Below, piece after piece: positions 2,301-60,974 of a stretch of 64,000 nucleotides of DNA. The notes beneath the pieces are model-generated. The model was not told the DNA's origin. It did no database searches and saw only the letters and a program-made list of their open reading frames with translations. Source of the stretch: Antedon mediterranea (Eukaryota > Animalia > Echinodermata); NCBI RefSeq assembly GCF_964355755.1, contig NC_092673.1, positions 16,985,648 to 17,049,647 of the forward strand. Reading direction: 5' to 3'. Both the position numbers and the translations under genes were made by a program. Numbering within the stretch: the first letter of the stretch is position 1; every line of letters begins with the position of its first letter.

Positions 2301-3495
2301 ATAAAGTGTATATTTTACAAAATATTTATATTATACAAGTATTCAGAGTGTTAATTGCATTTTAATCAATAAATACATTTAGTGCAATTATTTAAATTTT
2401 TTTTTATTATTATTTACAAAAGTGATTAGATTTCACATCTGCAGTTTCTGCCCTGTGTTGATGCGTTTAGCGTACACACATAATGGGGAAGTAACGACTG
2501 GGAACAGTGGGCACATTTTCTGAGTGTTTTAGACCAGAAAAGCGCCCTTATTGTAAGCCTTTAAAGGTGCAATAATTCTTGTTTTACATCAGCCTATGGT
2601 GGGGCTCAAGTTCAAGTTATCTTTATTGTGTTTTGACAAACAGGTATAAAAACAAAATTGGTTACTGGTCATAAAACAGGATATAAATAAACACATATAA
2701 AAAGTTCAAAGCATATTGAAAACTTACAATAGATGTTTTTAATCGCATTTCCTACTGCCGAATTCTGAATCATACCAGTTATTCATTTCAGGATTACTTT
2801 ATTTTCACTTTACCTTGAAACCATGCAAATCAACCGTATGTTGCTATAATTTCAACGATTTAGATTAAGGGTCGCTGTTAAAAAACGTTGCGTAACGTCT
2901 ATATGTTTGGATGAGTTTGATTTCCACAATTTTTTTTTTAGGACATAATTTCAATTAATAACTGTAGTTGTTAACTGTATACATTGTAGTTAAAAATATA
3001 CATTATTATTATTATATCCAGAATGAATGATTGCTTCTACAAGTGTTTGTAATCACACAGAGCCTTTGTATAACCTTATACCATTGAAAAAACTAAGACA
3101 ATTCAAGAGTGTTTCCCAGCTGTGAATTTTAATATAGTGTTTTTTATGAAAATATATAATATGTAATATTTTTGTTTTGTGTATTTTTTTAGATTTACCA
3201 AGTACTGTTGATGATAATTTAACAGAATTGTGATTAAAATGGGATTTCAGTAAAGAGAGAATTAGACAAAACATTATTTCTGAGCGGTACTGTAAAAAGG
3301 CGAAAAGTGTGCAACTGATAACAAATGGAGAACAGTTTCCATCCAAAATACTGTAATAATGCAATGAAGCTATAGTTTGCAGATTTATGTGGCATGCTTG
3401 CTTGATTTTTGCTTGATTGTTGATTTTTTTTGTTGTTGATTTTATTTTTTCCTTGATGTTTTAAAAATCTATTAAAATCTCGATTCAATTTTCAG

Positions 3496-3643
3496 ATATT
3501 GCTGAACGTGAATTAGATTTTCAGAAAGCATACAATGAAGCCTTGAAAGATGGATCCGTTCCAGTCAATCTTGGAATGCTTAAAGTGATTGGGCAAGAAG
3601 GAGTGGGTAAAACATGCCTCATCAATGCCTGTCTTGGAAAAGA
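3496..3643 (+). CDS. Roc domain exon with P-loop (G1)
   Basis: ttttcag acceptor and gtaagt donor; translates IAERELDFQKAYNEALKDGSVPVNLGMLKVIGQEGVGKTCLINACLGK (GxxxxGKT). Confidence 0.92.
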
Positions 3644-6600
3644 GTAAGTAGTACTAGTAGGACAATGAAATTTACATTACAAAATATTTGAAGAAAAGAA
3701 TTACAAACCAGCTAACTTTTAGCGATTTGTTTTTGATAAACTACTACTCTCTAAATATTGCAGTAATAGATCTAACAATAGTTAAATAAAAACGTCTATA
3801 AATATATAAATCGGTTTCTACAATGATCATAACACCATCAAATTTTCTATAGATTATAGAATTTCATTTTAATCTGGTATTCTTAAAAAAAAGATCATAT
3901 GAATTGTTGAATAATTTGACTTCCTAAATGTATAATTAATGAATATATTAAAATGGTTTTGAATTGAAAGGCATTACAAACATATTTTGGTGCCAAAATT
4001 CGCTCAATACGCCCCAACCACTACCGAAAACACCGAGAATCAGCGTCATGGAGCATATTTTGTATTATTTGGCCCACTTACTATGATCCGATTTTCACCA
4101 GAGTTTTCTCCATTTGTCGGAAATTTAATATTATTTTAAATGATATATATTTTTTTACAAATATGATAGTAATTTTTCCGGACAACAAAAGAACGTGAGT
4201 GCCTATCGCCCATTTTCACTGCGTGAAACCGGAAACATCGTATGGATTATAGCGAATTTGTCTACAAAATCAACTCAGTAGAATACGTTATTGGGCTACG
4301 AATTTCACCGGAGTTCCTGCAAACGATTCCTTATTTAATTCTGATTAACATATCTAAGAAACAGCCTCTGATTCGTCGAATTCGCTCCGGACTAGGCATT
4401 TTAACCAATCACGTCAGATTTCTCAAAGAGTCTGGTTGTATCCTTTTACACGCGCTATTTTGAAATCCTCGTTTTACGTCCGTATTTATGCTGACATCAT
4501 TTGATTATCCTTATTTATACTTCGTTTTCTTTCTACTTTTTTGGATTTTAAGTATAATATAGCTTTCATTAACTTGTAGATAAAGTTGAGTGTACTTGTA
4601 CATTTTTTGTTTAATCATATGTTAAAAATGTCAAAGCCCTCTGCTTTTGTGTAGTGTTCATCGGGGTTTTTATGAGGTTTGGAACAGTCCATGTTGACCG
4701 GATAGACCGGAGTGGGGATGTGCAGCTAGCGTAAAGTGGTGGTTGTGTTAAATGAATTTAAATTATAATTTATAGCAATGCTCTAATAATACTGTAAAAT
4801 GTTTAATTTAGAGGGAATACTTTTATAATACATAGTATGTTTTTTTCGTATGTTCACTTTCTATGAAAAATGCACATCGTGTCAATTAACCCCCTCTGGA
4901 AATAGTAGTCCATAGCTTATCTCCGACTGCCTGAATGACCTTCGTTGCGCGATCCTGTACACAAAGGCCGAATAAAAATTACTTTTGTGACAATAAGTTT
5001 GAAATGGAAAAATTGCATTTTTTACAGTACTTAAAATGACTGAAGTTCATAGTTGTTGGTTTCAACAGCCAACAATACCAACAATACTTTTTGTATTTTT
5101 GCCAGATTTGAGAAAAACCATGTAGTTACAGATGGGATAGCAGTGATAAGAACAGCAAGCACAACATGGAAAGAGGCTAATGCTGATAGTGGTAAACATG
5201 AATACAAATTAGCATATTACTCTTCCCATCATCATAGGCTATGTAACAATATTTAACTTTGATCTCATTATCATAGACACAAACAGGCCCACAATGAAAC
5301 TGAGATGTAGAATGGAATTCAATAAATGCATACAACTGTAGTATGGTGTCAACAGTCATATTTTCACATACATACAGCAATTGTTACTCTATGATCCCTT
5401 AACACACAACCTATTGTTTGTTGATGTACTGTAATTGTAATTTTACATTAGATAATCAATCAGTTAAATTAATTGTCATCTATCAATGTATCTGCTGAAA
5501 TAATACGTACTAATGTCTTTTTTCTCTACAGCTAATCCTTCAAAACAGTATACAAAAATCGTCACTGACAAACTGAGAAAAAAGAAAACTCTAAACGTAT
5601 GTCAATAATAGTGTAATGAAAACATAAAATGAATAAAGTAGCACCTACAGGATTATTGCAAACCAGACACTTAGGCTTTCTTTCTAAATGAATCAATGAG
5701 GCAGCTATTTCATTTTTTTTATTCTTCAATTCTTTTAAAATTTACTCTAAAAAATAATTTGGTTTTGTTTTTGAGAGTAAATAATATTAGTTTTTCTTAT
5801 ATTAAATTGTAAACAATACTGTATTTAACTTTGAATAAACATTTATTACTTTTTTTATATCCATTTATTGTTTTTGTTTTATGTGTCAGATTGACATGAA
5901 ACCACCTACAGATGATGAGGATGGTATTCTTGATGAATACAATAACGATGACAAAAATGATGGTATGTAACTTTTCTTTAAATTCTAATTACTAGAGGGT
6001 GACCTCGCTTTGCTCGCTCCCCCTCTAGGATGTGTAGACGATGGTTCTCGGAATGATATTGACTCTGGTAAAAAGGTTTTTAGAAGGACATTCTTGCCTG
6101 GATGTGTTCGGTCGGTTACTAGCTATTGTTTGTTGATGTATTGTAATTGTAAAAAACATGGACAGAGGCTGAAGCTGATAGTGGTAAACATGAATAAAAA
6201 GTAGCATCTTCCCATCATCATTGGCTATGTAACAATATTTATCATTATTCTCATTATCATAGACACAAACAGGCCCACAATGAAACTGAGATGTAGAATG
6301 GAATTCAATAAATGCATACAACCGTAATATGGTGTCAACAGTCATATTTTCACATACAATTGTTACTTTACTTTACAATTGTTACTCTATGATCCCTTAA
6401 CACGCTAGCTTGTTTGTTGATGTATTGTAATTGTAATTTTACATTACTTAATCAATCAGTTAAATTAATTGTCATCTATCAATGTATCTGCTGAAATAAA
6501 ACGTACAAATGTCTTTTTTCTCTACAGGTAATGCTTCAAAACAGTATACGAAAATCGCCACTGACAAATTGAGAAAACATAAAACTATAAACGTATGTAA

Positions 6601-9600
6601 ATAATAGTGTAATGAAAACATAAAATGAATAAAGTAGCACCTACAGGATTATTGCAAACCAGACACTTAGGCTTTCTTTCTAAATGAATCAATGAGGCAT
6701 TATGAACAGCTATTTCTTTTTTTTTCCTCAATCCTTTTAAAATTTACTCTTAAAAATAATTTGGTTTTGTTTTTGAGAGTAAATAATATTACTTTTCTCT
6801 TATATTAAATTGTAAACAATACTGTATTTAACTTTTAATAAACATTTATTTCTTTTTTATATCCATTTGTTGTTTTTGTTTTATGTGTCAGATTGACATG
6901 AAACCACCTACAGATGATGAGGATGGTATTCTTGATGAATACAATAACGATGACAAAAATGATGGTATGTAACTTTTCCTTAAATTCTAATTTCTAGAGG
7001 GTGACCTCGCTTCGCTCGCTCCCCCTCTAGGAAGTGTAGACGATGGTTCTCGGAATGATATTGACTCGGGTAAAAAGGTTTTTAGAAGGACATTCTTGCC
7101 TGGATGTGTTCGGTCGGTTACTAGCTATTGTTTGTTGATGTATTGTAATTGTAATTTTAATTAATTAATAATTTCTCTACAGGTAATCCTTCAAAACAGT
7201 ATACAAAAATGGTCACTGACAAACTAAGAGAAAAGAAAACTGTAAGCATAATGTCAGTAATAGTGTAATGAAAACATAAAATAAATAAAGTAGCACCTAC
7301 AGGACTAACTATTGCAAACCAGTCACTTAGGCTTTCTTTCTAAATGAATCAATGAGGCATTATGAGCAGCTATTTCATTTTTTTGTTGTTGCTTCAATCC
7401 TTTTAAAATTTACTCTAACAAATAACTTGGTTTTTTTGTTTGAGGGTAAATAATATTAGTTTTCTCTTATATTAAATTGTAAACAAAACTGTATTTAACT
7501 TGAATAAACATTTGTTTCATATTTATATCCATTTTTTGTGTTATTTATCAGATTGACATGAAACCACCTACAGATGATGTCGAGGATGATGATGGTATTG
7601 TTGTTGACTACAATAATGATGACAACAATGATGATTACAAAAATAACGACAACAATGATTACAAAAATGATAGTATGTAACTTTCCATTAAATTCTAATT
7701 ATTATTATTACATATTACATAATACATATACATTACATTTTGTTGCTAATTTGCAATTTCTGTGATATTAAGTTTGTGCTGTAGTTATTTGAAATAAATA
7801 GATTATTAATTAGATTTTCCAATTTAAAGTAACTTTTAATTTTCCTATAAAATTATTAAATTTATGTGATCAGAGGTGGAGGTAAGGCAACCTTTAACCT
7901 GTGTAACAATTATGGTGACAATCATACTTTTCTACCTCTACTCTGACAGTGTCAACTAAAACTATAATGATGATAACAATGATGATGATTCAGTGTAACA
8001 ATGATAATGAAGACTGCAATGATGATAATGACAATTAAAACAATGATGATAATCAGAACAACTATAACAATATGTTAATCACTTTTACAATGATTAAAAT
8101 AATGATGCTTGTTTACATGTGTTGAGAGTGACCAAAACACTTGTTTCCACTACAGGTTCTTATACAGCTACTAAAGCTGTTACATTTGATACAGATCAGC
8201 AATTAGATAAAGATGTAATCAAGAAACTTGAGGAAAAAAAGGAGGACCCCTTGGAAGAAACATTTAACATCTGGGATCATGGAGGTCAATTAATATACCA
8301 TGGTATACATCGCGTAAGTTATAATATATGTATTTGCCTTGAAGTTAATATTATATTGACATTGTTTAAATACTATACACAGTTAAAAGGAATTGTCTCT
8401 GTATATACTAACATAATGGTATGACCAAGGTTTAATTTGTGCATTCAGTAATCGCAAACATCTTTCCATGGTACTGCTTTATATAAATTGTTATTACAAA
8501 TTTTGCCTACGTCAATAAAAAAGTATTTTGTTTTCAATCATAACTGATTTTAACAGTTTTATATGAATTTGTACTAGAAAAATGCTTTAATAAAAAAGAG
8601 TATCAATAGTAAATGTATAAACGCAGTTTATCAAAAGACAACCTACAGAATAAAATGATATTCGCGCAGTCACCTATCTTGCGCCGCGTAGCGGTGCTAT
8701 ACAATCTTTGCTTAAAGCATATTAATCAAATATTTGAATAAAAACAAATTGTGTTTTTGCAGATGTTCATGACATTACAAGCACTTTATATTGTAGTGTT
8801 CGACCTAAGTGTAGACCTCAATGATCCTGCTGTTTATATTGATTCCAATGGAGTAAGTATTTTGCTATATATTTTATGCATTACAATGAGTTTTATTTCA
8901 TACCTTCCAAATGAGCTGCATAAATTTACATAATTGAAACCTAACCATTTTAATTGTGGTTAGAAATCATTTACTTCTTCATTTCATTTTACTAGAACAA
9001 AGATAAAATGTTTTTTAAACTAGTCTTTCTTTTTTATAGCAAAAGTGTAAACATCATTGGACCAATCTCCAGTTCATATTATCTTACATCCTGTCAGTTT
9101 ATTCTCATAGTCGTATTGTGAAAGAAGATGAGGAGAATGAAGTTAACAAACCAACTATCCTTATTGTGGGTACACATAAGGGTAAGCTTGGTAAGACTGA
9201 AAAAGAACAAAATGATGAGGTAATCTATTTCTATAGCTATCTTAAAAAATAACCTAAAAGACATATTACTGCTCTAAAAATATGAAGATACTTTATTAAC
9301 CAACTTTATATAGGTATATAATAATAAAAAAAATTTAAATATTATTTTAAATAAATATATATGTATATTACATTTTATAAACTTTTTGCAACCAGGCAAA
9401 TATCATTTTTGAGAAGGTTCAAGATGTGCTTAGAGGAAAACTGTATGAAGAACATATATATAAATATTTTGCCATTGAAAACAGCCGAGAAACAACAGAT
9501 AAAAGCTTTAGTGATCTCAAAGAGGTTATTGAAAAGTTTATGGCCACTTTAGAAAAAGATGTTCCTTTAAAGTGGATGCGTTTTCGATGTGACCTTCAAG

Positions 9601-12600
9601 ACCTCAGGAGGGAAAAACATTTTTCTTTGTGTCCTTTAGAAGAGGTAAACTTTTTTTTAACCACATTAATAATCTTACTTTGAGCATTAGAACTGAATTA
9701 ATAGTTCCATGTTCTGCCACAGTGTATTAATCAGAGGAACTCTACACCCAAATGTATAGAAAACTCGTTCTGACCACTGAAATGAACCGATCCATTATTA
9801 ATCGGAGGGATTATAAAAATACATTATACCTTTTTATAAACATTTCATTGCAGTATTAATGTTATAAGTTAGGATTTGCAAAATGTTATTAATTTAATAA
9901 TTTTTATCTGATTATAAAGTAATAATATTTCAAATAACCAATACTCTGATTAATAATGGATTGGTATTTAGTAGTCTCATAGCAGAATGAAACTAGAAAA
10001 CTCAGATGTTAAAATCAGAGTTTTCTATACATTCGTCTCAAAAGTACAACAATAAAATAGACATGAGAAACAAACATTGCCACATGGTAAGCTGTAATAT
10101 TAATCTTTCATATTGAAATATGGTATAGTACTGATTAGATTTCTGTAAAGACAGTCTAATTTGAATGGATATAGAAACAATTTAGGAATGAAGACTTGCA
10201 TAAGAAAACGGTTTAACATCTTGTTCTATATTCTCTACACTGAAATACCAAAAAGTGTTGTTCATGTAACCATGGAGGTATACCTCCATTATGTAACAGT
10301 TCAAATACAAAATTAACGTTGGTAATAACTGTAAATCTACCATGTTATAAAAACGGAATATCATTTCCTATTTAACTATTTAAAAAAAATCTAATATTAT
10401 AACCATTATTTCTAGCTCAAAATGCTGGCAACTAAGAATGGTATTGAAAAAGAACAATCGGTACTGCTTAACTTCCTGTATGATCTTGGTGAAATTGTTT
10501 ACATGCCTGACAACAAATTATTAAGAGATAAAGCAGTGTTAGATCCGATGCAGCTGGTTGAAATTGTTACTGCTTTTGTAACAGTCATTCCACCAAAGTT
10601 TCCAGTAAGTACAGTAGGCCCATGTAATATTTCAAATTGTAAATACTAGATGGTACGCTCGCGTACCATCTAGGTCGTGCCCACAGATGGTTCTCGAATA
10701 CATAATAATTTCAGGCACTGGCGATTTCAAATGTACAATAATGCAGGACAATAATACATGTCGTTTACAGGAACGAATAAATAGACACTGTGATTTATGT
10801 ACTCAACTAAAATTAGCACCCTGGGAATTACTTCCGAAAGAGAAACTTGTCACAAAATGAGACCAATTGTTTAAGTCAAATTTAAACAAACTTAATTTGT
10901 GTTTTGTATGTAACATTATGGTTGAGGGATGGGGAAGAGGATGGGTGCAAAGAGGAACAATTTTTAAATATATTCTTTATCCATTTAGTAGCGAAATATT
11001 AATTGTTTTCATGTTTTACAAATAATATACCACTAAACACGGTAAAACATTGCGATGTAATACTTTGTTGAAACTATCACCGTCCTAGTCGATTGAAATA
11101 GTACAGTACATGTAACGATACACTACGACGTATATATGTTTATATAATGTTAAACAATTTGTGAAAACCACCTCTATTCGGGGCAAATCATAAATTCGAT
11201 TTAATCGTTAATAAATATTAAATTATCTAACTCAACTTAATTAGTAGGCCTAATGGTTTTCAATTGTTTCTAGAGCCAATTCATACTTAAGTTGGTTCCT
11301 ATACCCTACCCACCAAAGTTGTCGTTGATCCTTCGACGGTACCACCGTAGGCCTATCCTCTACTGGCTTTACAACGCTACTCATGCCAGTGAGGGAAGGG
11401 TGATGATGTGGAGGGTGGTTCCCGGGGTGGTTTAACTGCAATAATAAAGATTTGTACATAATATACGGCGACTGAAAACGCTAGCTCATTATCCGTTAAA
11501 AAAAATCTATATCCAACCAGCACAGATTGAAAACAAAATGATCGAATTTCTGTTATGAGTATACAGTACTTGCCTTTACGACGCCTGAGGGAATAGACAC
11601 TTGTGGAACAGAGATTGGAATGTTCCATTCATTGCAAATCAATACATTTGTATAAACGTATATTAAATGTATCAAAATAGCATTTTTTAAGGAAAATCGG
11701 CCTGTCTTCAACATTATGATGCTGTACTCGAACTGTTCAACCGGTTTTCAGCTATTAAAAACAATTATCGTAGGAGGAGATAGGAAAATGCGAAGTGTCC
11801 TCGTATTATTGTATGCGGGTATTTTTCAATTTGACATCATCATTAGACAGTGTATACCACGATCAGAAAACACCCCTATTTGGGGCAAATCGTTGAACCT
11901 AAATTCGTTTTAATTTAATAACTAATTATCAAACTCAATTTAATTAGTCAACAGAGTTACATCAGGTGGTTAAAATCAGTACCGAAAGTACGAACCAACT
12001 TTATATACCATCGAGTAAACATTCTAGAAATAACGCTTGATTTACCGATTTTTGCTCTTACGTAAATTTATATATAGATGTGTTTGTGGTGTCACTCCTA
12101 TGCAAGTTCGGTGCAGTTCCTTGTGAAAACATTATTTTTGATCATAGTACTTAAGAATTCTTTTTTTTGGTATAGAAGCCTGCATTTAGGAGACTTGACA
12201 AGGGCATACTGGAAGAAAAGTTGTTGCGAAAATTATGGAAAGAGCGTAAAGTTGACGAAGGAAAGAATTTTGAGTTCCTTGTGGCACTGATGATTCAATT
12301 AGGTTTCATTTGTGAAAAGACGACGACCAACAACCAAGATTTGGCAAGTACATCTACAGTAGGTTTTATTCAGTTATCTTTTTTAACATGTTATATTTTG
12401 TATGCAAGATTGTGTAAAAAATTATTTTTTTGGGATATATTTGTAGAGTTATGACATATTTTGGTTAAACTTTCTGCTGAAGATGTTTTTAACATGTACA
12501 GGAAATGATTTTCGTTTTCTTATTAAAAGAAATTTAAATGGCATTTTACAAATCAACAATTTCAGGAATGTGTTGGAAAGCGATCATTCTTTGTGCCACT

Positions 12601-15600
12601 ACGCCTTGCTTTCAAGACATCAACTGAAGGGAAACCAATGCCTGATGAATTTCCAGCTATCAGTATCTATTACGACTTTAAGGGATATCTGCCAGATGTA
12701 TTGTTTCCATATATGATTATTGATTTCCTCAACAAATTTCAAAAGAAAGGCGATGACCCAATACTCTTGTATAATCATGCTGAACTTTACTTCGACCAAG
12801 ATCATCATGTGACCTTATCTCTTGTCAAATTTGTGACTACGGACGAGGAGGATGAAAGAAAGTTCTTGTTAAAGGTACTGTATCATATAATTTCTTGTGA
12901 TTTAGTCATTTAATCTAAACATAAACTTAAATTCAGATACCAAAACATTACTTTTCTTCTTTTTTCAGGTGACTATTAAAAGAACAAATGTTCCTAATGA
13001 AGCAAGTAATGAAGAACCCTCTTCTGAAGCATGTAAAGAGGTATGTTATTTGATATATCAGTTTTTAAAACTATAAGATTTTTTATAGATATTTTTGTTG
13101 ATTTGATTTTTTTGTAATTATGACATAGTTTAAAATAACTTAAATATTTAAAATCCTGTTTGTGTAGTTTACTTGATGTGTAATATAATTTGTAATTTTT
13201 ATTGATATACATTATTAATTGAATATTAAATTGATTATTGACAATTGATTTATAAAAACATTACATCTTAAACAAATAAATGATATAATCTTAATATTAT
13301 ATAAATTTAAAATACAAACAACTTAAAGTACAGTTATCAAAGCTAGTTTATAAGTGATATTCACTGAAATGAAATTTTTATATGGTCATGAATCTTGGCC
13401 TCAATGCCTGCAATTAAAACTTTATAAACAATAATGAGGTTTATTGTATGGTGACAAGATTTTGTTACATTTTGACAAAATATGTAAAATGTCGATAGTA
13501 GTGATAATTCACCTTATATTTGTATTTTAGGAATTTATTTCAATTATTATTGTTTTACTTTTTCCTTTATAACTATTTTGTATTGTAAATGTTTAGCGAA
13601 CATTTTAAAAATGTGTGCTACATTGTTTAAGTGTTAATTGCATGTTTTTGAATATTAACCTTTATATCTTTAGGTTTTGTTAACGATCCAGAAGTCATTT
13701 GCACCTACTAAAGATGGTGGTAGAAGAGGGATTCAATTCGAGAGATGCATACTTTGTGATATATGTAGTGATACATCAGAAAAGAAACACATTCAAAATC
13801 TTGGTGATTTCCAGGACGAGAAGTTGCCATGCTCCAAAACTGGCACGTATATGAGTATGGATGTTACACGTTACAAACGGCTATTTGGAGGTAAGAATAA
13901 AAACAGAGACAGACAAGTTCGATTTTATTTCACTGAAATATTTACTACTACAACCATTTGGTGTAATGGTTATGTAATCAGCCTTTCAACTAACAATAGT
14001 TTCAGTTGACTAACAATAGAACAGCAACGCCAAAAACAAACGGGTGAATTTGAAAATAATCATCAACAAACTTGTACATTAAATCTAATTATGTTTTAAA
14101 ATTACAAATCACATATTATAACTGTTGCCTCTTGTACAAAAATGAAGTTTTTTGGACAAGTAGTTCTCGAGAAAATGCAATTTCAGTTTACTCAATACTT
14201 TAAGACTGTTCGCTGGCTTTTGAAAATTCTTTTAACACTAGCAGGTCTGAAAATAATTCTAAAAAGTTGTCCAGAATTGGGACCGTGGTCCAGATTGCCT
14301 CCAAAATTTAATGGAAAGATTTTGGGAAAGATCTTGTAATTACTTTTTGAGTTCCTGCTAACAAACAAACAAACAAACACACACGCGATTGACTACATAT
14401 ACCTCCTTGGCGGAGGTAAATAATAAAATTTATGTAAACCGATAAAATGTGGGGAAAAACCTAAATATGAGTTAGTACTAGTACTAAGAGGAATTAATAT
14501 ATCACAGTTAACAGCAGCATTTCACCTAACTCATATTTCATCATATGGCAATACAATTACGTAACGCATATAGCGCTTAACATTTTCAAAATTGATTTTG
14601 GATGAAATTGGAGTACGTTTCAGGCAATTTTAAGCGTTTAAAAAATTGCCATTAGTGCGCAGATTTTTCACAAGCCTTTATTTTAATAATTTCATCATAT
14701 TTTATTCAACTCAAAATTGCGTAATACAAGCACCTCAAAAAGGACAGGCTAGGCACGTGTAAGTTAACAAAATGGTGAAAATATGCCAAGTTTTATAATT
14801 AATATAGGTCGTTTGAATGCTCGGGAACACCCATTTTGCATTTCATTTTCTTAAAGTGTATGTATCATATGTATGATTTATTATGAAATTAAAGGGGGGT
14901 TCCGGGTTTAAAATGAATAGTAAAAAATGTAAAATATATTTGTTTGTCTCTTGAACGGTAAAAGTTTCAATTTATATAAGCGCCCAGTGAAGCAGAACGA
15001 AGGCTGTGAAATAAGGCCAGATTACAAGTGCAGCTACGGCGATATGACACTGTGTTACCAGAATAGGAAATTCGTGAAATGGTCAATCTTCCGACGACCC
15101 GTTATCATTAACCATATCAATTACTTTTGTAAAATTATACTTATCTGATGTAATTTTAGTCGGTCTTTCCATTTATAAAGTCAATGTTCTATGAAAATTC
15201 ATCAAAACAGTGAAAAATTAGATATGTTTGCACTTTACGTTTGCCGATTTTCGCACTGACTTAGGGAGGGCCTTCAAAATCAATGAAGCGTAACGTATAC
15301 ATTCCTGCTGAGCGAGGAGGAGAGAGCGAGACGACGATCGATACACGTGCTCTACCCTATACCACTTGCCCGCCTGGCAGCGTCACGTGATAAGCAGATA
15401 CAGTATACAATACCAAACTGGTCGGGTCGAGTATACCCCGTCTATAATTACAACATGAACGATGTACAGTATTTGATTGAAGGTCGACTCGACCTACCGA
15501 AATGGTATAGATAATATAGCTCGAATGAGAGAGTTGGAATATTTGTAAACATAAGTATTGCTAATTTTAAGAAGTGTAGCCTAGTAAAAGGCCTGGTAGT

Positions 15601-18600
15601 ATCAATTCGCATAGGGTCTACTACACTAGCTAGCTCAATTTTTAACTGGGCCGGATCGGCTAGGTCTCCTTCCTACTACCTGGTCTACTTGCTTGATGCA
15701 GTAGTATCCGCTTTTTTGGAGAGTAAACTAGGCCTATTTTAGGCCTACTTAGACGATCGGGAAACCATACGTGCGGACGGCGATATTTACAGCCGATTTT
15801 GTAGAATGTTTTAGGTTTAGATTGTTTAGGAGTTTGGTTGATAGGATGGGTTTGGAATCCACTGAGATTTGTTATTTATGGGCCAATCGTTTAGTAGTGG
15901 GCCAATCGTTTAGTAGTAGGCTAGCTAGGCCCATGATGGGCCCCAATGTTTTAGCGTTTTAATCCCTAGTCAGAATGGCTCTCACCCATGAAACAAAATG
16001 ATTTAGGCTAGGCCTAGCCTAGTACGTGAAGCCGATAATACGATCTGTACTATTCAAGGTATAAAAATAGTATATAATTTATGACTCCGTAATCTGTACT
16101 AAGTTTTGTATTTCATTAAATGTCAAATAAATAGTTATGCTACTACTGTTATTATTGCACTTTAGGCATAGCTTAGAAAATCTACAAAAAATGTATTTCA
16201 CAATGATCGGGTGGTCGTCGTTTGACAGGAGAGAGAGATTTAGTTGACAAACGCAACGTACATGACGTCGCGAGTTTGGAATCCACTGATGACGCGATTT
16301 TGTGAATATCTCATGAATATTAATGAGCTTCCCTAAGCTGCTGAAAAACAGACTTTCCATGAATTTACCCTAAAATGTATATGAAATTTTATTTTTTTAA
16401 TTTCTCGTTATTATTTCTTCATTCTGACATGTCTATATTGTTATAATATTTTTTATTTAATAAATAAACGATATTTAAAAGCAATTTTAAACCCAGAATC
16501 CCCCTTTAAGTCATCACTAATTGCATATTAAATTTTCAAAAATTAATTTTGACAATCAAACAAATTATGACATTTTCTTGGGCCGAAATAACAAACTAAA
16601 CATTAACTTTCTTCCGTAAATACACTTTTAGTCAGTTGCATGGCTCGGTGGTCTGTGCTCGTGTCTATGGCATTCAAGGTACCGAGATCGAGTTTCACCT
16701 TGGGGACGAAACGAAATAAGATTTTTTTTTATATCCGTATTGTTTGTTCAATTTTATTTCTTAGTGTATAGATTATACACATGATACACATGATTTATAA
16801 TGAAATCTAGATAAAAAGTAACTTTTATCTTTATTATTATGTAACAAATGTGGTCTATGACATTATACGCAGAGGGATATTGATCAACAACATCGGCAAG
16901 GGTTCGAGGCCGACTCGCTCCTAGTTCTGGTGGTGGAACAAGTCTTCTCGGATAAGGACTATAAACCGTAGGTCCAGTGTACACAGTTATAACCTGTGTG
17001 TACTTTAAAGAAACCCAGTTCATTATTCGAAAAAGAGTAGGGGGTTACCCCGGTGAACTGGTTCACACAATAGCCCCTGTATCAGGGGGATTACCACCTA
17101 TCCTATAGGACAGTGATTAATTCACTATTGGTAATCCTTGGCCACATTGCCTAAAGACATAAAATAAAATAAATAAATAAATAACATGCTGCTAATAGCT
17201 GTGATATCTTCATTCCTCTTACCAGTAGCAGTACTATCAGAATCATTATTGATAATCTATACATTGTTACAACATGCTGCTATTAGCTGTGATATCTTCA
17301 ATCCTCTTACCAGTAGTATAGTACTATCAGAATCATCAGGCCCGTAGCCAGGGGGGGTTTTATGGTTCAGGCGAACCCCCCTTTACAGCGAACCCCCTTA
17401 ACCAACTGCGAACCCCCATCCCCGACATGCCCAATACCTCACCCTCATCTCCAAAAATCCTCCAAATACGTGCCCCACAGTACAAAAAGTTGTTTGTAAA
17501 TTGAAAAATTCGTAAACTTGTTCGTGAACCTTCTTCTCTGTATGAGCGTCAACTAGTGATACGTGTCTGTAAATTTCTAAAAGCTGCAAATGAATTGCCG
17601 ATTTTAACCTAAAAAATAAATGTTTGGTCCCTGCATGTAACATGATATTGACGCGTCTCATAGCGAGCTGGCGCACGAACGATTCGTACAAAGGACACCG
17701 CCAGACAAACTGCGTACCTATAATTGTTTAGATCACTGGCAGTCAGGCAGCATGCATAAAGTATATAGCCTTCCGACGTACATCAGTATTTATGTGTGAC
17801 TATGAAGTATAATGTATCATAGAGGATTATAGTGAATATTAATATTTTACACTATAATATCTATGGTATCAAGTACTGTAGTTCACATTATGGCATCCGA
17901 TTATTTTTATTTTTTTCTAGACCACCAGCCGATACGTACTAAAATGTATCAATATCACCTATTTACATATTTATATTCCTCAACAAATTTCTGTAAATAA
18001 ATATTATAGATAGAGCTAGCAAATAGCATTTGCCTTCGCCCAGTGTGCTTTTTTCGGGGCTGCTCCTAGATATACGTTCGCATTGAACTTGAACGCAAAA
18101 CAAAATACGGAGTGAATGATCAAACAATCGGCGGTTCCGCACAGAGCACGCGCATCTAACATACGGCAACAAATAGTTATCGTCATTTAAATTATCGACG
18201 TGTTTGAGGAGGAGGAAAAAAGTACGATCTTTTTGCTCATTGGTTATATAGCATGCTGCACGAGAGTGTCTTTCCCGGCCATCTAGGGGTGTCATTTAAC
18301 AAAATTCGCTTCGCATCAGGCTGGGGGAGGGGGGGGGGGGTTTGACCCAAATATTTAGTGTCCGAACCCCCCCTTGACAGATCCTGGCTACGGCCCTGAT
18401 CATTATTGATAATCTATACATTGTTACAACAAGCGGCTATTAGCTGTGATATCTTCAATCCTCTTACCAGTAGTAGTACTAGCAGAACCATTATTGATAA
18501 TAGCTGTGACATCTTGTAAAGTGGATAAATATTTTTTATTTTATTTGCAGACGAAAGTTGGCCAAAAGAAAGGAGAGGAAGAAAAACGGATCAAGGTAAT

Positions 18601-21600
18601 TGATTGAAATATGTTGGTAAATAAGTAGAGAGAGAGAGAAAATAAAAACAAATTTAATATTTACAACATCTCAAACTGGTTTTGATTAGAATTGGGGGAA
18701 ACATCTCTTGGTATCTTTATTTTATTTTAATCCTTAACCATAAAACATACAAAACAAATAAAAATCCATAGCAGCCAAAAAAGCTGAATTGGGGATTTGT
18801 TACAAAGGCCAAATTTTTACAAATTATAAATTTCACATATTTTTTTTCAAATTAATATTATAAATATTAAACAATTTAAAAATTACACATAAAAGCAAGC
18901 AAAAGGCACAAAGAAGCGTTTTGCTAAGAAAAAAAAAAACATGTAAAGTCATTATTATTTAAGAATTAAGCAGACAAGTGAGATATAGAAGAAGCGGTCA
19001 TTTATTATATCTGGATAATGAGACCAAATTGTCCATATGCATTTTATCATATTTTAACTTTTAATCGCTTTTTAAAGATTTTGTGCAATAATGTGTGTGT
19101 TCTATATTTTAATTTTTTGTTTATATTTTATATATATATCGGTTTTTTATCGTACTAATATTTGCCAATCTTTAAGAAGAATTTCTTAAATTGTTATTTT
19201 ATTATGATAATGGACAAATAAAGCTTTTCAATATTTCATTAATTTTTCATTTGCAGGAAATACAATGGCAGATTCTGAAACTTTGGACAGTTTCCGAGAC
19301 CTAAAAGGTGGTCTCAGTGGGTACTTTGATGGTGAAAGATACCATTGGCTGAGGTTCCTACTATTTGATCAATTGGATGTCGGGGACCTTACAAATCCAC
19401 ATTGCAATGGACATGACTTACTCAATACACTTGAAGACAAAGGTTTCATCTCACCAACCAATGTTAACTTGCTGTTAGAGATTACAAATACATCTGAAAT
19501 CCAACAGGCCAAAGATCTTGTATCAAAGTATATGAGAGACAACAACATTCAGGATAGACATACTGATAGAACCAAGTTGTCGTCTTACAGAAAGCGACTG
19601 TTCAAGGCCCTGAAACAAGTTGACCCAGATGCATTACGTAATGTTACTGCTTACTATGACTTGACAAAATATAACGTCTCCAATGTATGGGATGCAGTTC
19701 TCTATCTGGAGAATGATAAACAATTAGTAGATGATTTTGACAAAATACAGAGGTTTGCAGAACGTCTTGGTGGAATAGCAAGCAACACACTACTTGGTAA
19801 TGGTATTTAATATTCTTACAAACTATTCCAAAGTTAATTGTAATGTAACTATTCATATCTTTCATTTGTTTTAAAATTTTACATGATTTAATTTCATTGT
19901 TTATATACTATACAAGTTGATAATGTATTGATTATTTTATTTATTAACTGATTATGTAATAGTGGGAAGAATGAGACTGATGAATATGACAAGATAGTGA
20001 TAATAAAGACATTGCTTTACTAATATAGGATAATGTCATAAACACAAAAATATGTTGATGAAGAATTTGGAATTTTGTAATTTGGAAAACTGATTATAGA
20101 TATAGAAAATGTAACTGAAAATTGTGTTTGAAAATTGTAAATACTGGACTAACTAACAACAACAACCCCCCCCCCCCCCCCACCTTTGGCTGGCTGACCC
20201 CTCCCCTGGGGGTAATCTATAAGAAATTTAGAAAAATGAAGCTGCTAGGTCTCCGGAAATTGCACTTATACATTGATATGATACAAAATTACCATTGTTG
20301 GGGGTGAGCTAAGAAAATTTTGAAAATTAGAGCTGTTAGGTCCCCGGAAACTCTATGGTTGGGTCTGAGCTAAGACAATTTTGAAAACTAGAGCTGCAGG
20401 TCTACAAAAATTACACTCATACATTGAAAATGGTGGAGGGAAAATTTGAAAATATGAAAAATTCATATTATTAAATTATCTGTTTTAAAAACAAATTCAC
20501 TGAAATAAATGTAAATGTTTGTGTATATTAAATGATAAATAAGTTATTGCCATCTGTCACAATTTAAATCCCCATGTTATTAAAATAATACTAATGACAA
20601 TGGCAGTAAAATAAGAAATAATTGATTATACTTACTTGGATAAAACATGCAAAATTGTATTATTTCACAAGATTCCAAAAAAACCCTACTTTTTTCACAG
20701 ATGTGCAAGATGGTTCAGTGACCTCTGCATTACCACAGTCTGATATCCAAGGCAGTCAACAAGGTAGGATCCACTGGTTAATTCCAGAGGTTAATCATCT
20801 AAGTGGTTACATTTTAAAATAAAACTTAATAGACATATTATAATATAACTGTAGCACATTTTGAGTTATTCAAACTGTATACATTTTAGATGAAAATGTA
20901 TAGTTATGTTACTCTCCAAAATGAACATAAAATGTATAGTTATGTTACTCTCCAAAATGAACATAAAATGATGAACATAAACAGTCATTTATTTGTGTGT
21001 CACTCATACAAAATAAAAAGCTTTGTCATTAAAATGTGTAATGTATAACTGTCTTTTTTTTATTTTTGTTGAACAGAATTAACAAAGCTATTAGCATCAG
21101 ATTCACCAGTTACTGTTAATGAGGAATTAAAAACACAAATGAAGAAAGTGATGATTAAGGAACAGGAAAGAAAACTTGAAGCAGAGAGCGGTGAGTTAAG
21201 GATCATAAATTAATTTACTTTTTATTTCGTCACCACTCAACAGTGACACAAGTCAAGTCAATTGCAAAGTTCAACAATAGAAAATGATGAACATATTTAA
21301 ACATAATTATATAAACAAAATCCAAAGATAAGGAATATTGTTATCAAAAGAACTGGAAAGAAAAAATAGACGCATTAGAAAATACCCTAAAAACATGGGA
21401 GAAAAGACACCTCACTTTTTTTGGAAGAATTACTATTGTAAAAACATTAGCGCTCTCAAAAATTATATACAATTCCTGCATTTTGCTAGTACCAGAAAAA
21501 GTAATAAAAGAGGTGGATAAATTAATTTTTAAATTAATTTGGGAAACTAAGAAAGAGAAAATAAAAAGAAAAACCATGTGTGCCAATTACAGTCAAGGTG

Positions 21601-24600
21601 GTCTAAAAATGGTAGAATTCAGATCTCGGGTAATATCTTTCCAAGTTAAATGGTACAGGAGACTGTATGAAAACGATGATGCCAAATGGAAATATTTACC
21701 TACATTTTATATAGAAAAGATAGGCCCAAAATCATTAACCTCAAATTTATCAAAAGTTTCGTGTAATATATCCGTACCACCATTTTACCTCTCAGTTATT
21801 AAGTCTATAGCAGTAGCTAATGCTTGTAATAATAGATTAAATAAGGAACCAATAAGCTATGATGACATTATTAATCAATCATTATGGGGTAATGAGTTTA
21901 TATGTATTAAAAAGAAGCCGTTATATAACTGTAACTGGATTAGTTCAGGGTTTTTAAAAATATATGATGTAATAAATAATAATGTGTTTAAGCCTGCGAT
22001 AGAGATAAAAAGAAGGTTAAGATGTACACAAAATTGGATCAGTGAATATTCATGTATATTGAAAGCCATTCCAAAAGAATGGAAATGTATTTTAAAATCA
22101 ACACATGACATTAATGTAAATGATATACCTATTACAAACAATAAGGTCTTAAATATGACGTCTAGACAATTATATAGATTCATAATAGATGCTCAATATA
22201 TTACACCTACGGCACAGGTTAAGTGGGAATCCATATTTGGTAATATGCCATGGACAAAAATATGGGTTAAGAAAGTTTCTGGTCTTAAAGAAAAAAAACT
22301 GGCACATTTTAATTTTAAATTGTTGCACAGAATATTGCCAACAAATGAAAGATTACATAGGCTTGTAAATTCCCCATGTTGTGACACATGCAATGTTATT
22401 GAGAATGATAAACATATGTTAGTAGAGTGCATAACAGTAAAATGTTTATGGAGAGAGATAAACGAAATAATTAGAGCAGTAAGCATACATATTCCTGTTT
22501 TTTCTTTCAAAAGACTTTTATTTGAAACTGACAATAATTACGTAAATAAATTATACACTTTAGGAGCATTTTGTATTTATAAAGTAAAGATATTAAGTTT
22601 ATTGGAAAAAGAAAAAAAAATCAATCTCCTACAAATGTTTAAATCTGAAAAAAAGATAAGAAATATGTAAATCTGCAGGTATACTGTATATGCTCAACCA
22701 GATTAAGGAAGAAAATATGTAAATGAGATACCATGAATGATGAATCTATTACTGTATGTTTTTTTTTTTTTTTTTCTTGCTACTATAGTGTATGTTTTGT
22801 AAATATGTATACCTTGATGATTTGAAAACAAAAAGACAAAATGTGAAAAGCTTTTTATAGATTGATGATAAAAAAATGATGAAGGATAAGAAGGTTTAGG
22901 TTTAAGTGGTGAAGTGTTTTCATCAAAGCTTTCATATTATAGGTATATACCGTATATATGTAATTTGCACATTCTTACTGCATGTGGAATTTTGAAATGA
23001 TAAAATGGTTAAAAAGAAAAAAAAATGTCTAATTTTTTTAATGGATCATTAAACACAAATGTTGTTAAATGATAATGTATGTATAAAAAAAATAATAGAA
23101 TAAATAATAAGTAAAAAAAAATAATTGAATGAACCCACATAGGAAAAAAAAAGTTAAATGAAACTTTGATGGGTTATACTGTAGATGCAAAAAAGGATAA
23201 TCTGTTGGAAATAAATTTTGTAAACATTTAAAGATAAAAAAAATCAATGTTAAAGGATGAGGAAAATATAATGTTAACAGTAAAAAGTTAGTAAGTAATT
23301 AGTATAACAGAGAATATGCACTGTTTAAATGAAAATATGTTTGCATAGATAAATCCAAAGAAAAATAAAATGGGACAAACCCATGGGATGGATTTATTAA
23401 ACATAAACGTATTATAATTGTATGAAATAAATATGCATGTAGATGAAAAAAAAACAAAAACAACTATGTAAGAAAAAATAAGCTTTGTTAATGAAAATGT
23501 GTTATAGATAATATGTATAAAAAGAGGAAACTATGTAATCAATGTGGTTAAATGATAATGTATGTATAAACAAAATAATATATGGAAATAGTTTTTTTTT
23601 TTTTTTTTTAAAGAAAATAAGTAAAAAAAAAAAGTGGAATGAATCCACATAAGAGAAGAAAGTAAAAAAGTTAAATGAAAATTTAAGAAGTTATAGATGC
23701 AAAAAAGGATCTGCTGGAAATAAAAGTTTTGTAAACATTAAAGAACAAAAATATTAATATTAATGTTAAAGGATGAGAACAATATTATGTTAACAGTAAA
23801 CATTTAGTAAGTAATGAGTATAACAGAGAATATGCATTGTTAAATGAAAATGTGGTAGATGAAAAAATCAAAAACAACTATGTAAGAAAAAAATAAGCTT
23901 GTTAATGAAAATGTGTTACAGATAATATGTTTAAAAAGAGGAAGCTATGTAATCAATGTGATAATATGTAAACAAATGAATAAAACTCTTTAAATAAGTA
24001 TATGTAAACAGATGATTAAACAAACATTGTAAATATAATGATATGTATAGTGTATAGTGAAAAATATATGTAAAGAGAACAGTGGTATGGAAATAAAAGT
24101 GGGATGAACCCACATAAGATAAAAAAAAAAAAAATCCAAAGCTCTGTCTTACGCTGGCCTTTAATATACTGTTCAACGTATACTAACAATAACTGTCTTT
24201 TCTGGATTTTTTTATTGAACAGAAGTGACAAAGCAGTTTCCATTGGATTCATCAGATACTCTTAGTGATGAATTTCAAACACAAGTAGAGGAAGAGGAAA
24301 TTAAACCTGAACCAGAGAGTGGTGAGTCTCATAAAATATTAGTTCAGTTATTAATATGGTTAAAATAACTTTAAATGTGATTTTATAGAATGGATTTCAG
24401 CTAAATTCTTTTTCATATCCTTTTTTTTATTTCAACATTTATTCAAAAAAAGAAAGTCCTTATAAACAGAAATATAAAGTGGTATTAGCTTTTAATTTTG
24501 TTCATACTTATTAGGCTAACATCATAATTTCATTCATTCATTTATTGCCAGGAAAAAACTACAAAATGACATTAACAATAGGAGGTTTAAAAAATAAAAT

Positions 24601-25894
24601 TGTGTTTTAAATAACCAAATGTTTATTTTGTTCACAATATTTAATTCTTATTATTTCAGATCCAGAGCAGCCACAAAATCAAGGGTAAATGTTTATTGAG
24701 TTACACCAAAAATTTGACATTTATCATTATTTGTTTTAACAATAAATTTACAGCAATACTTCTGCTTTGTACTTTTAACCAAATTAATTATGTGTATAAT
24801 TAATAATAAAACAGACAAAGTTCTTGTTTCTGCCTCAAAATAAAATATACCTGATGATGACCTATGGTCGAAAATACTAGTACAATAAATATTTTATTTT
24901 GATGCAGAAAACAAGAAATTTGTCTGTTTTATACATGATCTTGCCTATGCAGCACCTTTTTTTTCCCTAATTATGTGTATACTCTGGTATTAACTTCACT
25001 CAGTAACTTCATTTTTCATTCAGTACAAACACACTGCCAATTGGCTGCTGGTGTTGTATGTTTATACCAGAGAACTCCCTGTTTATACCATAATCAATCA
25101 ATAAATAAGTATTGCGCGTATGCATGTAAATTGGTAAACAAAGATACAATTGTAGCAATGTTAACTTACTGGAAATCTAATGATTTTTTTCACTGATTTA
25201 GAATAAATTAATGTTTTAAATGGTTATTTATGCCTATTCAATTTATTGATAAAAAATTAATACTTATCTTATAGTAAGAGGTAGAAGGAGTCTGAAAAAG
25301 TAAATTTAAGATTAATTATAATGTTATAATTGTTAGTTAGAATTTTAATAATAATTTGTGTACATTTTTAGTTCTAGACCGAGCCGAAAGAAATGTTTGT
25401 TGAAGTTTTTAAAAGGTATTTAACTATTCTATTTCAGAGTCTCAAAAATTGTTTTTAAATTCAAGCATTGTTTTCAACCTTCTGTAGTTTCAATTTGTAA
25501 AAATTATTTTTGTATACCTTTTACCTATAAATATTTTTTTTTGTCAATATAAAAAGTCAATAAACACAAATATATTGATAGGTAGAAATTGTGTAATTTT
25601 AAGAAAAACTCTTAATATAATTGTAAGAACCTTGAAACCTCTCAAGAATATTTTTTAAACAAGATAAGGATTTATGACAAATTTTCTCTTTTAGATTACC
25701 GGTGGAAAGTTTTTGCATTTTGGTTAATTCTATTGGCAGCCTTTGTCATCTTAATTATTATATATGATGGCTTAGCAGCAAGAATTGGCATTGGTATTGG
25801 ATTGTTGGTAACTGTTGGTATCTGGTGTGTACATAAGAAAGTCACCAAGTCTTTCCCCCGTATTCTTAAACCGGACTTTAGTCGTAGTTCGTAG
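3496..25894 (+). CDS. Multi-exon ROCO-family protein: Roc GTPase-COR-tandem DED-two TM helices (5'-incomplete, ~1,155 codons visible)
   Basis: Hand-spliced GT-AG exons with consistent phases: 3496-3643, 5106-5191, 5532-5596, 5890-5962, 6528-6592, 6892-6964, 7183-7241, 7552-7672, 8156-8313, 8763-8852, 9040-9219, 9396-9644, 10416-10604, 12176-12358, 12566-12874, 12969-13040, 13674-13890, 18551-18595, 19257-19796, 20701-20763, 21077-21190, 24223-24321, 24660-24684, 25372-25415, 25695-25894 (TAG). Total 3467 nt starting in phase 1, no internal stop. Roc, COR and DED motifs occur in order. Confidence 0.85.
5106..5191 (+). CDS. Roc exon with switch I/G2 (TDGI)
   Basis: FEKNHVVTDGIAVIRTASTTWKEANADS; phase 2 acceptor matches the previous donor; T-x-G-I is the Roc G2 pattern. 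Confidence 0.88.
5532..7672 (+). CDS. Three copies of a basic-exon/acidic-exon pair inserted between Roc G2 and G3
   Basis: Basic exons (NPSKQYTKIVTDKLRKKKTLN-like) at 5532-5596, 6528-6592, 7183-7241; acidic exons (IDMKPPTDDEDGILDEYNNDDKND-like) at 5890-5962, 6892-6964, 7552-7672. All have intact AG/GT sites, and the flanking intron sequence is duplicated too. Confidence 0.75.
5992..6117 (-). mobile_element. Helitron 3'-terminal fragment (second copy at 6994-7120)
   Basis: Minus strand ends in CTAG|T after a GC hairpin (ctagaggg...ccctctag) and shares gatggttctcg with the Helitron end at 10646. Confidence 0.6.
8156..9644 (+). CDS. Roc G3-G5 exons and start of COR
   Basis: FNIWDHGGQLIYHGIHR|MFMTLQALYIVVFDLS (Roc WDFxGQ...HxxFLTxxALYxVVFDL pattern); PTILIVGTHKG (G4 position); YFAIEN (G5 position); VPLKW (COR entry). 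Confidence 0.92.
10416..13890 (+). CDS. COR domain exons ending in a Cys/His cluster
   Basis: LNFLYDLGEIVY, VLDPMQLVEIV, GILEEKLLRKLW, FLVALMIQLGFI, FFVPLRL and GYLPDVLFPYMI are COR-type motifs; the last exon has CILCDIC...H...LPC. Confidence 0.88.
10646..12078 (-). mobile_element. Non-autonomous Helitron in a COR intron
   Basis: Minus strand starts A|TCTATATATA and ends with the palindrome ctagatggtacgcgagcgtaccatctag|T; inserted in an AT dinucleotide without TSD; further copies at 37986-39235 and 39321-40499. Confidence 0.85.
14100..14420. mobile_element. Helentron/DINE-like non-autonomous repeat remnant
   Basis: (caaa)n microsatellite followed by terminal hairpin tacctccttggcggaggta, the usual HINE layout; left boundary approximate. 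Confidence 0.5.
14893..16505. mobile_element. Kolobok-like non-autonomous DNA transposon
   Basis: TTAA|AGGGGGGTTCCGGGTTTAAAAT...ATTTTAAACCCAGAATCCCCCT|TTAA: TIRs with purine 5' termini and TTAA TSD. Confidence 0.8.
16890..17183 (+). mobile_element. tRNA-derived SINE with Deu/Nin-like core (5'-eroded)
   Basis: B-box ggttcgag; core ggataaggactataaaccgtaggtcc...aagagtagggggttaccccggtg; (taaa)n tail; homologous to the copy at 59514. Confidence 0.7.
17337..18398. mobile_element. MITE with CAGG TIRs and 5-bp TSD (ATCAT), inserted in an ~88-bp tandem repeat
   Basis: caggcccgtagccagg ... cctggctacggccctg; ATCAT on both sides; the uninterrupted unit cagaatcattattgataatc is seen at 17238-17257. Confidence 0.85.
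19257..19796 (+). CDS. Tandem death-effector-domain (DED-DED) exon
   Basis: 540-nt phase 1-1 exon. FRDLKGGLS...WLRFLLFDQL...DLLNTLEDKGFISPTNVNLLLEI and LSSYRKRLFKALKQV...VWDAVLYLENDKQL match the two helical DEDs of the caspase-8/cFLIP prodomain pattern. Confidence 0.8.
21330..23026 (+). mobile_element. 5'-truncated Tx1/L1-clade LINE (ORF2 C-terminus with zf-RVT) in an intron
   Basis: Open frame from ~21351 to 22670: WEKRHLTFFGRITIVKTLALSKIIY, QGGLKM, FNFKLLHRILPTNERL...CDTC...HMLVEC; A-rich end near 23012-23026. Confidence 0.9.
23060..24134. repeat. AT-rich diverged direct duplication (~450-490 bp units)
   Basis: gttaaatgataatgtatgtataa, gaacccacata, tgttaaaggatgag and aacaactatgtaagaaaaaa recur at about 480-bp spacing. 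Confidence 0.65.
25695..25894 (+). CDS. Terminal exon with two transmembrane helices; stop codon supplied by an inserted MITE
   Basis: DYRWKVFAFWLILLAAFVILIIIYDGLAARIGIGIGLLVTVGIWCVHKKVTKSF then PRILKPDFSRSS* read from the TIR; two hydrophobic stretches flanked by basic residues. Confidence 0.8.
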
Positions 25895-26788
25895 TTCGAA
25901 GTTCGACTTGGAAAAGTCGTAGTTCGAGCTATTACTTCAAATTCGATTCAAAAACGAAGTAGTCGAAGTTTGCAGTTCGACTTAATGAAGTCGAGCTTTT
26001 AGTCGAGTTGCACACGTCTGGGTAACAAAGGCTATACATTGGCCAATAACAAGAGAGTATTTTAGGAGCAGACGAAATTTTGCGCATTGATATCACTTTC
26101 CATTTCTTACAACACTTTTTACGCATCAGGACTATATACATGAAAAATAATTTTAATCGTTAATTATTAGAACAATATCAGTATTAATTTAACAGTGAAG
26201 TATATTTGATTAACAACAAATAAAATCTTTAAAATATATTTAGGAACCATGGCGGTACGGTAACTTTTATATTTTCTAGGCCCCCAACAAAGTATGATCG
26301 CCACGAACCACACACTTCATAGCGTGACAAGAAAGCGCTAGGCCCCCTAAACATTCCATCGCGTGGTGAATTGCCGCATCTCCCATTGTCGCTATGGCGT
26401 GACGTAGCTCAAGTCGGACTTGCGCGAAGAAAATAATGTAATTTGTATACAGTTGTAAATAAAGATGATTTTCATTATTATAATTTATACCAATGTATAT
26501 TTAATTAAGCTAATATAAATATAGATATTTCATTCTTCAATATCTGGCCAATATAACAACTCAATGACTGTTACGTTTTTTATAAACATCGTTTAAAAAC
26601 CATTTAGTCGACCATTTAGTCTGCCCCCTCCAGGACTAAAAAAATCGATCAAAATCCGTCTCGATTTAGTCGAGGTTGGCCTGATTTAGTCGGTGATTTA
26701 GTTGAAGTTCGGTTTATGAATTAAAATGACGTCATTTTTCTAGTTTTAGCTCGAACTACGACTAAAGTCCGGTTTAAGAATACGGGCG
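25855..26788. mobile_element. MITE (PIF/Harbinger-like termini) inside the last coding exon
   Basis: cccgtattcttaaaccggactttagtcgtagttcg at 25857 and its exact reverse complement ending at 26786; TSD ambiguous (TTT/TTG). Confidence 0.85.
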
Positions 26789-56235: not shown

Positions 56236-56260
56236 GTGGTTTGTCTAACAAAAGCTATGC

Positions 56261-60907: not shown

Positions 60908-60974
60908 TTAAGTCAGTTTTTTCTGAAAGAGTAGTGGTAGATTTGTTTTGTGCGTACTAGTACTGGTGCACCAC

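Follow-up and report, generated by a model that had tools for sequence, protein, structure and literature searches.

The 64,000-nt window of Antedon mediterranea DNA holds a real and annotated, though unstudied, gene that is a member of the ROCO family by its Roc-COR tandem. On the forward strand from 3496 to 25894, twenty-five exons with AG/GT at every intron (candidate splice sites) form a single open frame of 1154 amino acids, which runs from Roc and COR through a Cys/His cluster, two predicted DEDs and a linker to two hydrophobic segments. We tentatively read it as a single gene from a ROCO expansion in crinoids, with the order ankyrin-Roc-COR-tandem DED-linker-hairpin anchor, whose product could serve as a cytosol-facing membrane scaffold for death or immune signaling.

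Gene model and its two ends

A search with the DED exon retrieved the RefSeq protein XP_071948758.1 (A. mediterranea, 'uncharacterized'; hereafter P0001, other collected proteins being numbered likewise) at 100% identity, and 951 of 966 residues were identical between P0001 and the 25-exon model. The open frame and this agreement uphold the original prediction of one spliced frame from Roc to the hydrophobic pair, although the full architecture as drawn is not the annotated one: the start of P0001 falls within the acidic insert, past the exons for the P-loop, which the annotated model therefore lacks. All features of the gene lie on the plus strand. The first Roc exon (3496..3643; 98% to P0009/P0012) encodes the N-terminal helix, β1 and the P-loop (G1), and the second (5106..5191) the switch I threonine (G2), as aligned to the C. 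tepidum Roco. The acidic insert between G1 and G3 (5532..7672; repeat families D5-D17) is built from an exon pair repeated three times in tandem, with every copy in frame (5532-5596/5890-5962, 6528-6592/6892-6964 and 7183-7241/7552-7672). The exons at 8156-8313, 8763-8852, 9040-9219 and 9396-9644 carry G3 (WDHGGQ), G4 (THKG) and the start of COR, followed by the COR exons at 10416-10604, 12176-12358, 12566-12874, 12969-13040 and 13674-13890, the last of which holds the Cys/His cluster. Beyond a repeat-rich intron of 4.66 kb (13891-18550), a 45-nt phase 1-1 spacer exon (18551..18595), present in P0001 and homologous to spacers in P0004, P0005, P0016 and P0047, marks the COR/DED boundary. The tandem DED occupies one exon (19257..19796), which has its own ATG at 19265, as had been noted before, and an alternative in-frame donor at 19802. 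Five linker exons (20701-20763, 21077-21190, 24223-24321, 24660-24684 and 25372-25415), all of them in P0001, lead to the terminal exon (25695..25894), whose tail is 78% identical to that of P0020. The introns after the end of COR are all phase 1 bar one. The junctions 13890-18551-19257 proposed earlier are the very ones through which P0001 splices, and the phases of the donor at 13890 (9.4 bits) and the acceptor at 18551 (12.2 bits, both scored with a matrix derived from these same sites) match. The direct 19796-25695 junction proposed with them does keep the frame, but P0001 places the five linker exons between its two sides.

The two hydrophobic segments of the terminal exon have Kyte-Doolittle 19-mer peaks of 3.04 and 1.93, are kept in paralogs, and are predicted to span the membrane. 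Because the loop between them is short and basic residues flank them on either side, the two segments may form a hairpin whose ends both face the cytosol. A non-autonomous DNA-transposon-like element of ~0.93 kb (25855..26788; self-BLAST and flanks), with 35-bp perfect terminal inverted repeats at 25857-25891 and 26752-26786, is inserted in this exon, and its left terminal inverted repeat supplies the current stop at 25892-25894. The stop at 25894 had been taken for the end of the gene; it sits in the transposon instead. The insertion severed the natural tail and left both hydrophobic segments untouched, and the frame resumes at ~26790, where the displaced end of the exon (26790..26864, +; 24 codons and a stop) is 74% identical to residues 895-917 of P0020. 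P0001 exits the second hydrophobic segment at 25817 and joins a 15-residue end exon at 53551; we dropped that exon in favor of the P0020-like tail. Between the tail and the next paralog, which starts at 57726 with its own ATG and ankyrin exons, no family-protein match was found except this RefSeq end exon.

The frame does not begin at 3496, as the original prediction had it. An exon at 34..118 (+), with AG/GT and phase 1, splices in frame to 3496 and extends the model to 1183 codons in 26 exons without a stop or frameshift. It is the counterpart of the last ankyrin-module exon in the paralogs P0130 and P0119 (61% identity over 28 amino acids to P0130 76-103, E 1e-9) and matches the paralog exon at 59357-59441 at 74% of nucleotides. 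This exon shows that the gene begins upstream of the window, where the earlier ankyrin exons lie. The protein probably has ankyrin repeats at its N-terminus, which are a candidate sensor absent from the original prediction.

Two other stretches were considered at this end. A degenerate copy of the ankyrin-to-Roc linker exon (3193..3286, +), whose first residues resemble the linker of P0130/P0009/P0012, contains an in-frame TGA; its acceptor scores 10.8 bits and its donors 1.0-4.8 bits, with no frame-keeping, stop-free donor of normal strength, and it would have to be skipped during splicing. Its nucleotide likeness to the DED-TM linker exons is weak, as high a score being reached by 3 and 43 of 500 shuffles. 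The stretch 1959-2045, which matches the N-terminus of P0009/P0018, was rejected as an exon: a frameshift follows its ATG, and its strand is opposite to that of an apparent retroelement fragment, so judged by resemblance, on which Pfam gave no match. The stop-bearing exon at 3193, the transposon in the last exon and the RefSeq model lacking the P-loop are signs of wear in the present copy.

Roc-COR core and tandem DED

The Roc-COR homology was evident from several comparisons. Pfam matched Roc (30.2 bits, cut-off 27) and COR-A (49.8 bits, cut-off 35.3; E 4e-13) on P0001, and the family profile found the C. tepidum Roco as its best PDB sequence match (E 1.5e-18) as well as LRRK2 (E 5e-7). COR-B had no Pfam match on P0001; a weak one (E 0.0014) occurred in a distant unit of P0119, and residues 88-571 of an Atlas model aligned to a bacterial COR-A/COR-B cluster at TM 0.84 per that row, below the naming bar. 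A C-x(1,2)-C...H...C cluster closes 36 of the 37 COR ends examined, which confirms the CxxC/H/C motif described earlier after COR; such a cluster would bind zinc. G1 (GQEGVGKT), the switch I threonine of G2 and G3 are intact, and G4 reads THKG, not THxD. The missing aspartate leaves ROCO membership unaffected, because G4-G5 vary among Roco proteins according to the available part of PMC6337361. With this residue gone, however, guanine specificity and GTPase cycling cannot be assumed. Among 21 named Antedon Roc proteins that have the motif, 19 carry G or A at this residue, one N and one D, whereas the aspartate is present in all eight Anneissia records and in Ptychodera. The acidic insert is enlarged by the triplicated exon pair: G1 and G3 lie 237 amino acids apart here, compared with a range of 132-191 among the measured relatives from crinoids and hemichordates.

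The original prediction was to fall if the product of 19257-19796 did not model as death folds. With a 43-row alignment, AF2 modeled the exon with a pLDDT of 95.2 and a pTM of 0.89, and the best fold matches were the tandem DEDs of caspase-8 and cFLIP (Foldseek TM 0.71). In the VIA comparison, caspase-8/cFLIP scored Z 15.3 with an rmsd of 3.1 Å over 160 residues, cFLIP and vFLIP structures were among the top fold matches (Z 12-14), and the first non-DED row had Z 4.3. The alignment mended two single-sequence failures, an AlphaFold pLDDT of 37 and a PDB search with no relevant match. At the sequence level, too, the profile picks up the caspase-8 prodomain (E 5e-4; identity 18%), and ESM Atlas DED clusters match the tandem DED at 0.91-0.93. 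On the DED exon, Pfam DED reached 20.4 bits, under its cut-off of 35.9, and a profile comparison between the two DED halves found no sequence similarity (probability <2%). A caspase-8-type tandem DED fold is thus a well-supported prediction for this exon, and the Pfam matches, the fold model and the hydropathy agree with the domain calls made originally (Roc-COR, caspase-8-type tandem DED and hydrophobic C-terminal pair). This fold stands in place of a Death domain (PF00531), which had no match on P0001. Caspase-8 uses an FL motif in DED2 for chain growth. At the matching positions, reached by extending the alignment without gaps and so in an extrapolated register, the present DED2 reads A-Y; therefore caspase-8-type packing cannot be assumed.

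An apparent mosaic copy and the question of two genes

Twenty-nine Roc/COR cluster representatives lie on the same 36.2-Mb contig. Of the 63 Roc/COR proteins collected, 25 have COR running directly into a tandem DED; these come from two crinoids, and six of them are Anneissia records, which represent two loci. In others, COR is followed by Death domains, TM pairs or nothing at the C-terminus, and the N-terminus has ankyrins, DEDs, Death or kinase domains. P0019 (tDED-Roc-COR-tDED-TM-TM) is the one other model that ends COR-DED-DED-TM-TM, and it falls on a separate branch of the COR tree, which comprised 38 rows (all COR matches longer than 250 residues among the collected proteins, with P0001 left out). 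Hydrophobic tails after COR, with or without a linker, occur in P0004, P0020, P0023, P0119, P0123 and the hemichordate P0037. The present copy looks like a recent mosaic: its COR is nearest to P0014/P0003 (97% identical to P0014) and its DED and linker to P0044 (90%, for the linker over 99 aa), and its tail to P0020, the parts apparently joined at phase-1 introns. Such an ancestry fits module exchange by unequal crossing-over. Many paralog models are fragmentary. Six of 24 listed exon differences are synonymous; several paralogs are mixed in, and we draw nothing from these counts.

All of these exons probably belong to one transcript, a fusion that rests on annotation and paralogy, with every supporting gene model automated. 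It is unlikely that the region holds two adjacent genes, one for ankyrin-Roc-COR and another for DED-DED-linker-TM, the latter starting at the ATG at 19265 and encoding a membrane-anchored DED adaptor. P0044 (309 aa), to which the DED and linker exons are most closely related, has exactly this form, being annotated as a stand-alone DED-DED-linker-TM protein that starts at the same Met and matches the first three linker exons; P0047 (two accessions) is a stand-alone DED-DED model with a spacer exon, eight proteins of the collected set combine a tandem DED and TM without Roc or COR, and the length of intron 13891-18550 likewise favors a split. However, the sites that bound this intron are strong and phase-matched, the COR-to-DED junction recurs in the 25 of 63 models from two species, and no second gene start was found among the family matches. 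Moreover, the Met is missing in 7 of 11 aligned paralogs, so the exon cannot start at that position there, and in P0003, P0014 and P0015, the nearest COR relatives, COR runs on into DEDs. Reads that we guess to be RNA, mapped to 13570-14070, gave contigs matching the exon and a high-copy repeat (~13944-14062), and the other intron bins were uncovered. At several sites the contigs of this presumed RNA run differ at full depth from the window, which points to paralogs or other alleles, and none among the contig rows listed (a further 190 rows exist) had a loose end at 13890.

Possible function and comparison with known systems

For a single gene of the order proposed here, a signaling cycle can be sketched. 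The ankyrins or the expanded acidic insert may sense a trigger; the oligomeric state of Roc-COR would shift with the bound nucleotide, and its self-association would concentrate the DEDs. Clustered DED pairs could then recruit DED partners, for example the crinoid DED-DED caspase P0101, and seed or join a DED chain, with death or immune signaling as the output. We infer the nucleation of DED filaments by Roc-COR dimers, and every other functional step in this sketch. Each Roc-COR dimer would supply just two DED pairs, a number that may not suffice to seed a filament. The available part of PMC6337361 describes LRRK2 as a GTP-bound cytosolic monomer that dimerizes at membranes on hydrolysis and is dimeric mainly at membranes; a fixed membrane anchor would be a plausible shortcut because of this behavior. 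As to partners, P0101 is an Antedon protein of the same tandem-DED family (27% over 173 aa, E 7e-17), and the same family is fused in Antedon to NACHT-LRR (DEDs N-terminal), TIR, a very large GTPase and a Death domain; these proteins, P0101 among them, are plausible partners for the present one.

We doubt that the gene, even if single, encodes an inhibitor, namely a membrane decoy of the cFLIP-S/vFLIP kind that would bind and cap DED chains and whose availability would be set by Roc-COR. No Peptidase_C14 (caspase domain) match was found on P0001, where a linker and the hydrophobic tail follow the DEDs, and the high rank of cFLIP and vFLIP structures among the fold matches, the altered FL positions and the lost G4 aspartate also suit a decoy. 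On the other hand, the caspase P0101 carries the same A-Y motif at its DED2 FL positions, and the change is not decoy-specific; the Antedon NACHT-LRR receptors, too, have the same DED family at their N-terminus, which suggests a signaling use. A bolder extension of the scaffold reading, which we regard as rather improbable, is that crinoids have built an NLR-like repertoire of intracellular receptors on ROCO, not NACHT, with swappable sensor, death-fold and tail exons and an altered nucleotide pocket, and that its tailed members would seed caspase-8-type DED filaments on an organelle without a death receptor or FADD. Least probable is that we are looking at a recombinant copy in decay or with little function left, part of a birth-and-death array, whose architecture is a by-product of unequal crossing-over: the stop-bearing exon at 3193, the transposon, the triplicated exon pair, the mosaic ancestry and the many fragmentary paralog models would fit it, but 1183 codons in 26 exons are free of stops and frameshifts, both hydrophobic segments outlast the insertion, polyadenylation-type hexamers lie downstream at 26219 and 26458, and the same C-terminal order arose independently in P0019.

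The scaffold proposed here shares parts with several known systems. DAPK1 has ankyrins, and in ROCO proteins of its type, as in the present gene, Roc-COR is flanked by an ankyrin module on the N-terminal side and a death fold on the C-terminal side; the present gene differs in its hydrophobic tail, its long acidic insert, its G4 without Asp and the tandem DED that takes the place of the death domain. DAPK1-type ROCO proteins carry a kinase before RocCOR and a C-terminal death domain (PMC6337361, available part), whereas no kinase is seen in the present gene, whose 5' end lies outside the window and whose paralogs begin at ankyrins, P0119 and the downstream paralog both starting with Met and ankyrins. 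Kinase-less invertebrate Roc-COR-Death proteins, which form large and mostly molluscan clusters in the ESM Atlas (score 0.93), share Roc-COR, a death-fold output and lineage expansion, and Antedon also has such paralogs (P0025-P0027); no DED occurs among the Atlas clusters listed, and the present gene adds a membrane tail. The prodomains of caspase-8, cFLIP and vFLIP share the predicted tandem DED fold, supported by the profile match, but the DEDs here are C-terminal, not N-terminal, come without a caspase domain, have low identity and read A-Y in DED2.

ROCO expansions and domain swaps are on record elsewhere. In the sections of the sources available to us, at least 17 Trichoplax ROCOs carry CARD, death, TPR or LRR domains (PMC4104024), about forty animal ROCO domain combinations are described (PMC11378527), and the Ectocarpus ROCOs are clustered, expanded and exon-shuffled candidate immune receptors, some with C-termini homologous to transmembrane proteins (PMC4104024, PMC11378527). 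Ectocarpus shuffles LRR exons, whereas the crinoid family swaps whole modules (ankyrin, DED pair, death domain and tail) and has no LRRs; it would be a further candidate immune family, clustered and with shuffling modules, in a group whose immunity has received little study. Bacterial LRR-AP-GTPase-COR-effector conflict systems, reported together with invertebrate DED expansions in the available part of PMC8195603, share the logic of sensor repeats, Roc-COR and a variable effector, but the present gene is animal, ankyrin- and DED-based and membrane-tailed. Kinase-less Roc-COR-death-fold proteins and ROCO expansions are thus already known, and the tandem DED with a membrane tail is what differs here. 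The original prediction knew of no characterized protein of this architecture, and none with the order Roc-COR-DED-DED-TM-TM was found in the literature searched, whose reach stopped short of most subscription journals and the supplements of PMC11378527; the protein is nevertheless already a RefSeq model and part of a large crinoid family with shuffled modules. The gene bears on what Roc-COR dimerization does in kinase-less proteins. Since the DED pair and the membrane tail are the sole outputs here, a single construct could show whether polymer nucleation is driven by the nucleotide cycle of a ROCO protein, and natural variants with or without the tail, the DEDs or the G4 aspartate would serve as controls.

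The tandem DED module and its fusion partners

The tandem DED is a promiscuous adaptor module. Among the stored proteins P0043-P0114, the same tandem DED that follows Roc-COR in the gene under study was joined to NACHT-LRR, TIR, a very large GTPase and kinases, and further to RING/B-box-NHL, ZU5, Macro/RRM, ubiquitin and multi-TM tails; the twelve records examined from this set were all from Antedon.

Related ROCO proteins

A predicted membrane-tailed ROCO protein occurs outside the crinoids: in the Ptychodera flava protein P0037 (XP_070537067.1), Roc-COR is followed by three hydrophobic segments. The model of P0119, an Antedon paralogue on the same contig, comprises ankyrins, two unlike Roc-COR units one after the other, and two TM segments; it may join two separate genes. 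Its start is closely resembled by the 5’ end of the next paralogue downstream (57726-59441, + strand), where an ATG exon (57726-57733) precedes ankyrin exons at 58095-58188, 58367-58474 and 59357-59441, all in frame. At the G4 motif of Roc (exon 9040-9219 in the window), Gly or Ala replaces the Asp in 19 of the 21 named Antedon Roc proteins, paralogues included, and the Asp is retained in all eight records from the second crinoid, Anneissia.

Mobile elements and repeats

The intron at 13891-18550 contains several inverted-repeat elements (arms at 14889/16509, 17331/18404 and 14473/17233) and a high-copy repeat at ~13944-14062. Within an intron between two linker exons, an open frame of 451 codons (21315-22667, +) forms the C-terminal portion of a LINE-like element, with a zf-RVT match at E 5e-5. 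Farther downstream, a 148-codon open frame (60927-61370, +), which gave no match in a Pfam search, resembles the terminal part of a retroelement. The long repetitive ORFs of the window arise from tandem arrays with units of 62, ~99, 18 and 38 bp, located at 27320-28746, 35002-37670, 40903-42733, 49426-49974 and 56260-57102; the ~99-bp array consists of two blocks in opposite orientations.
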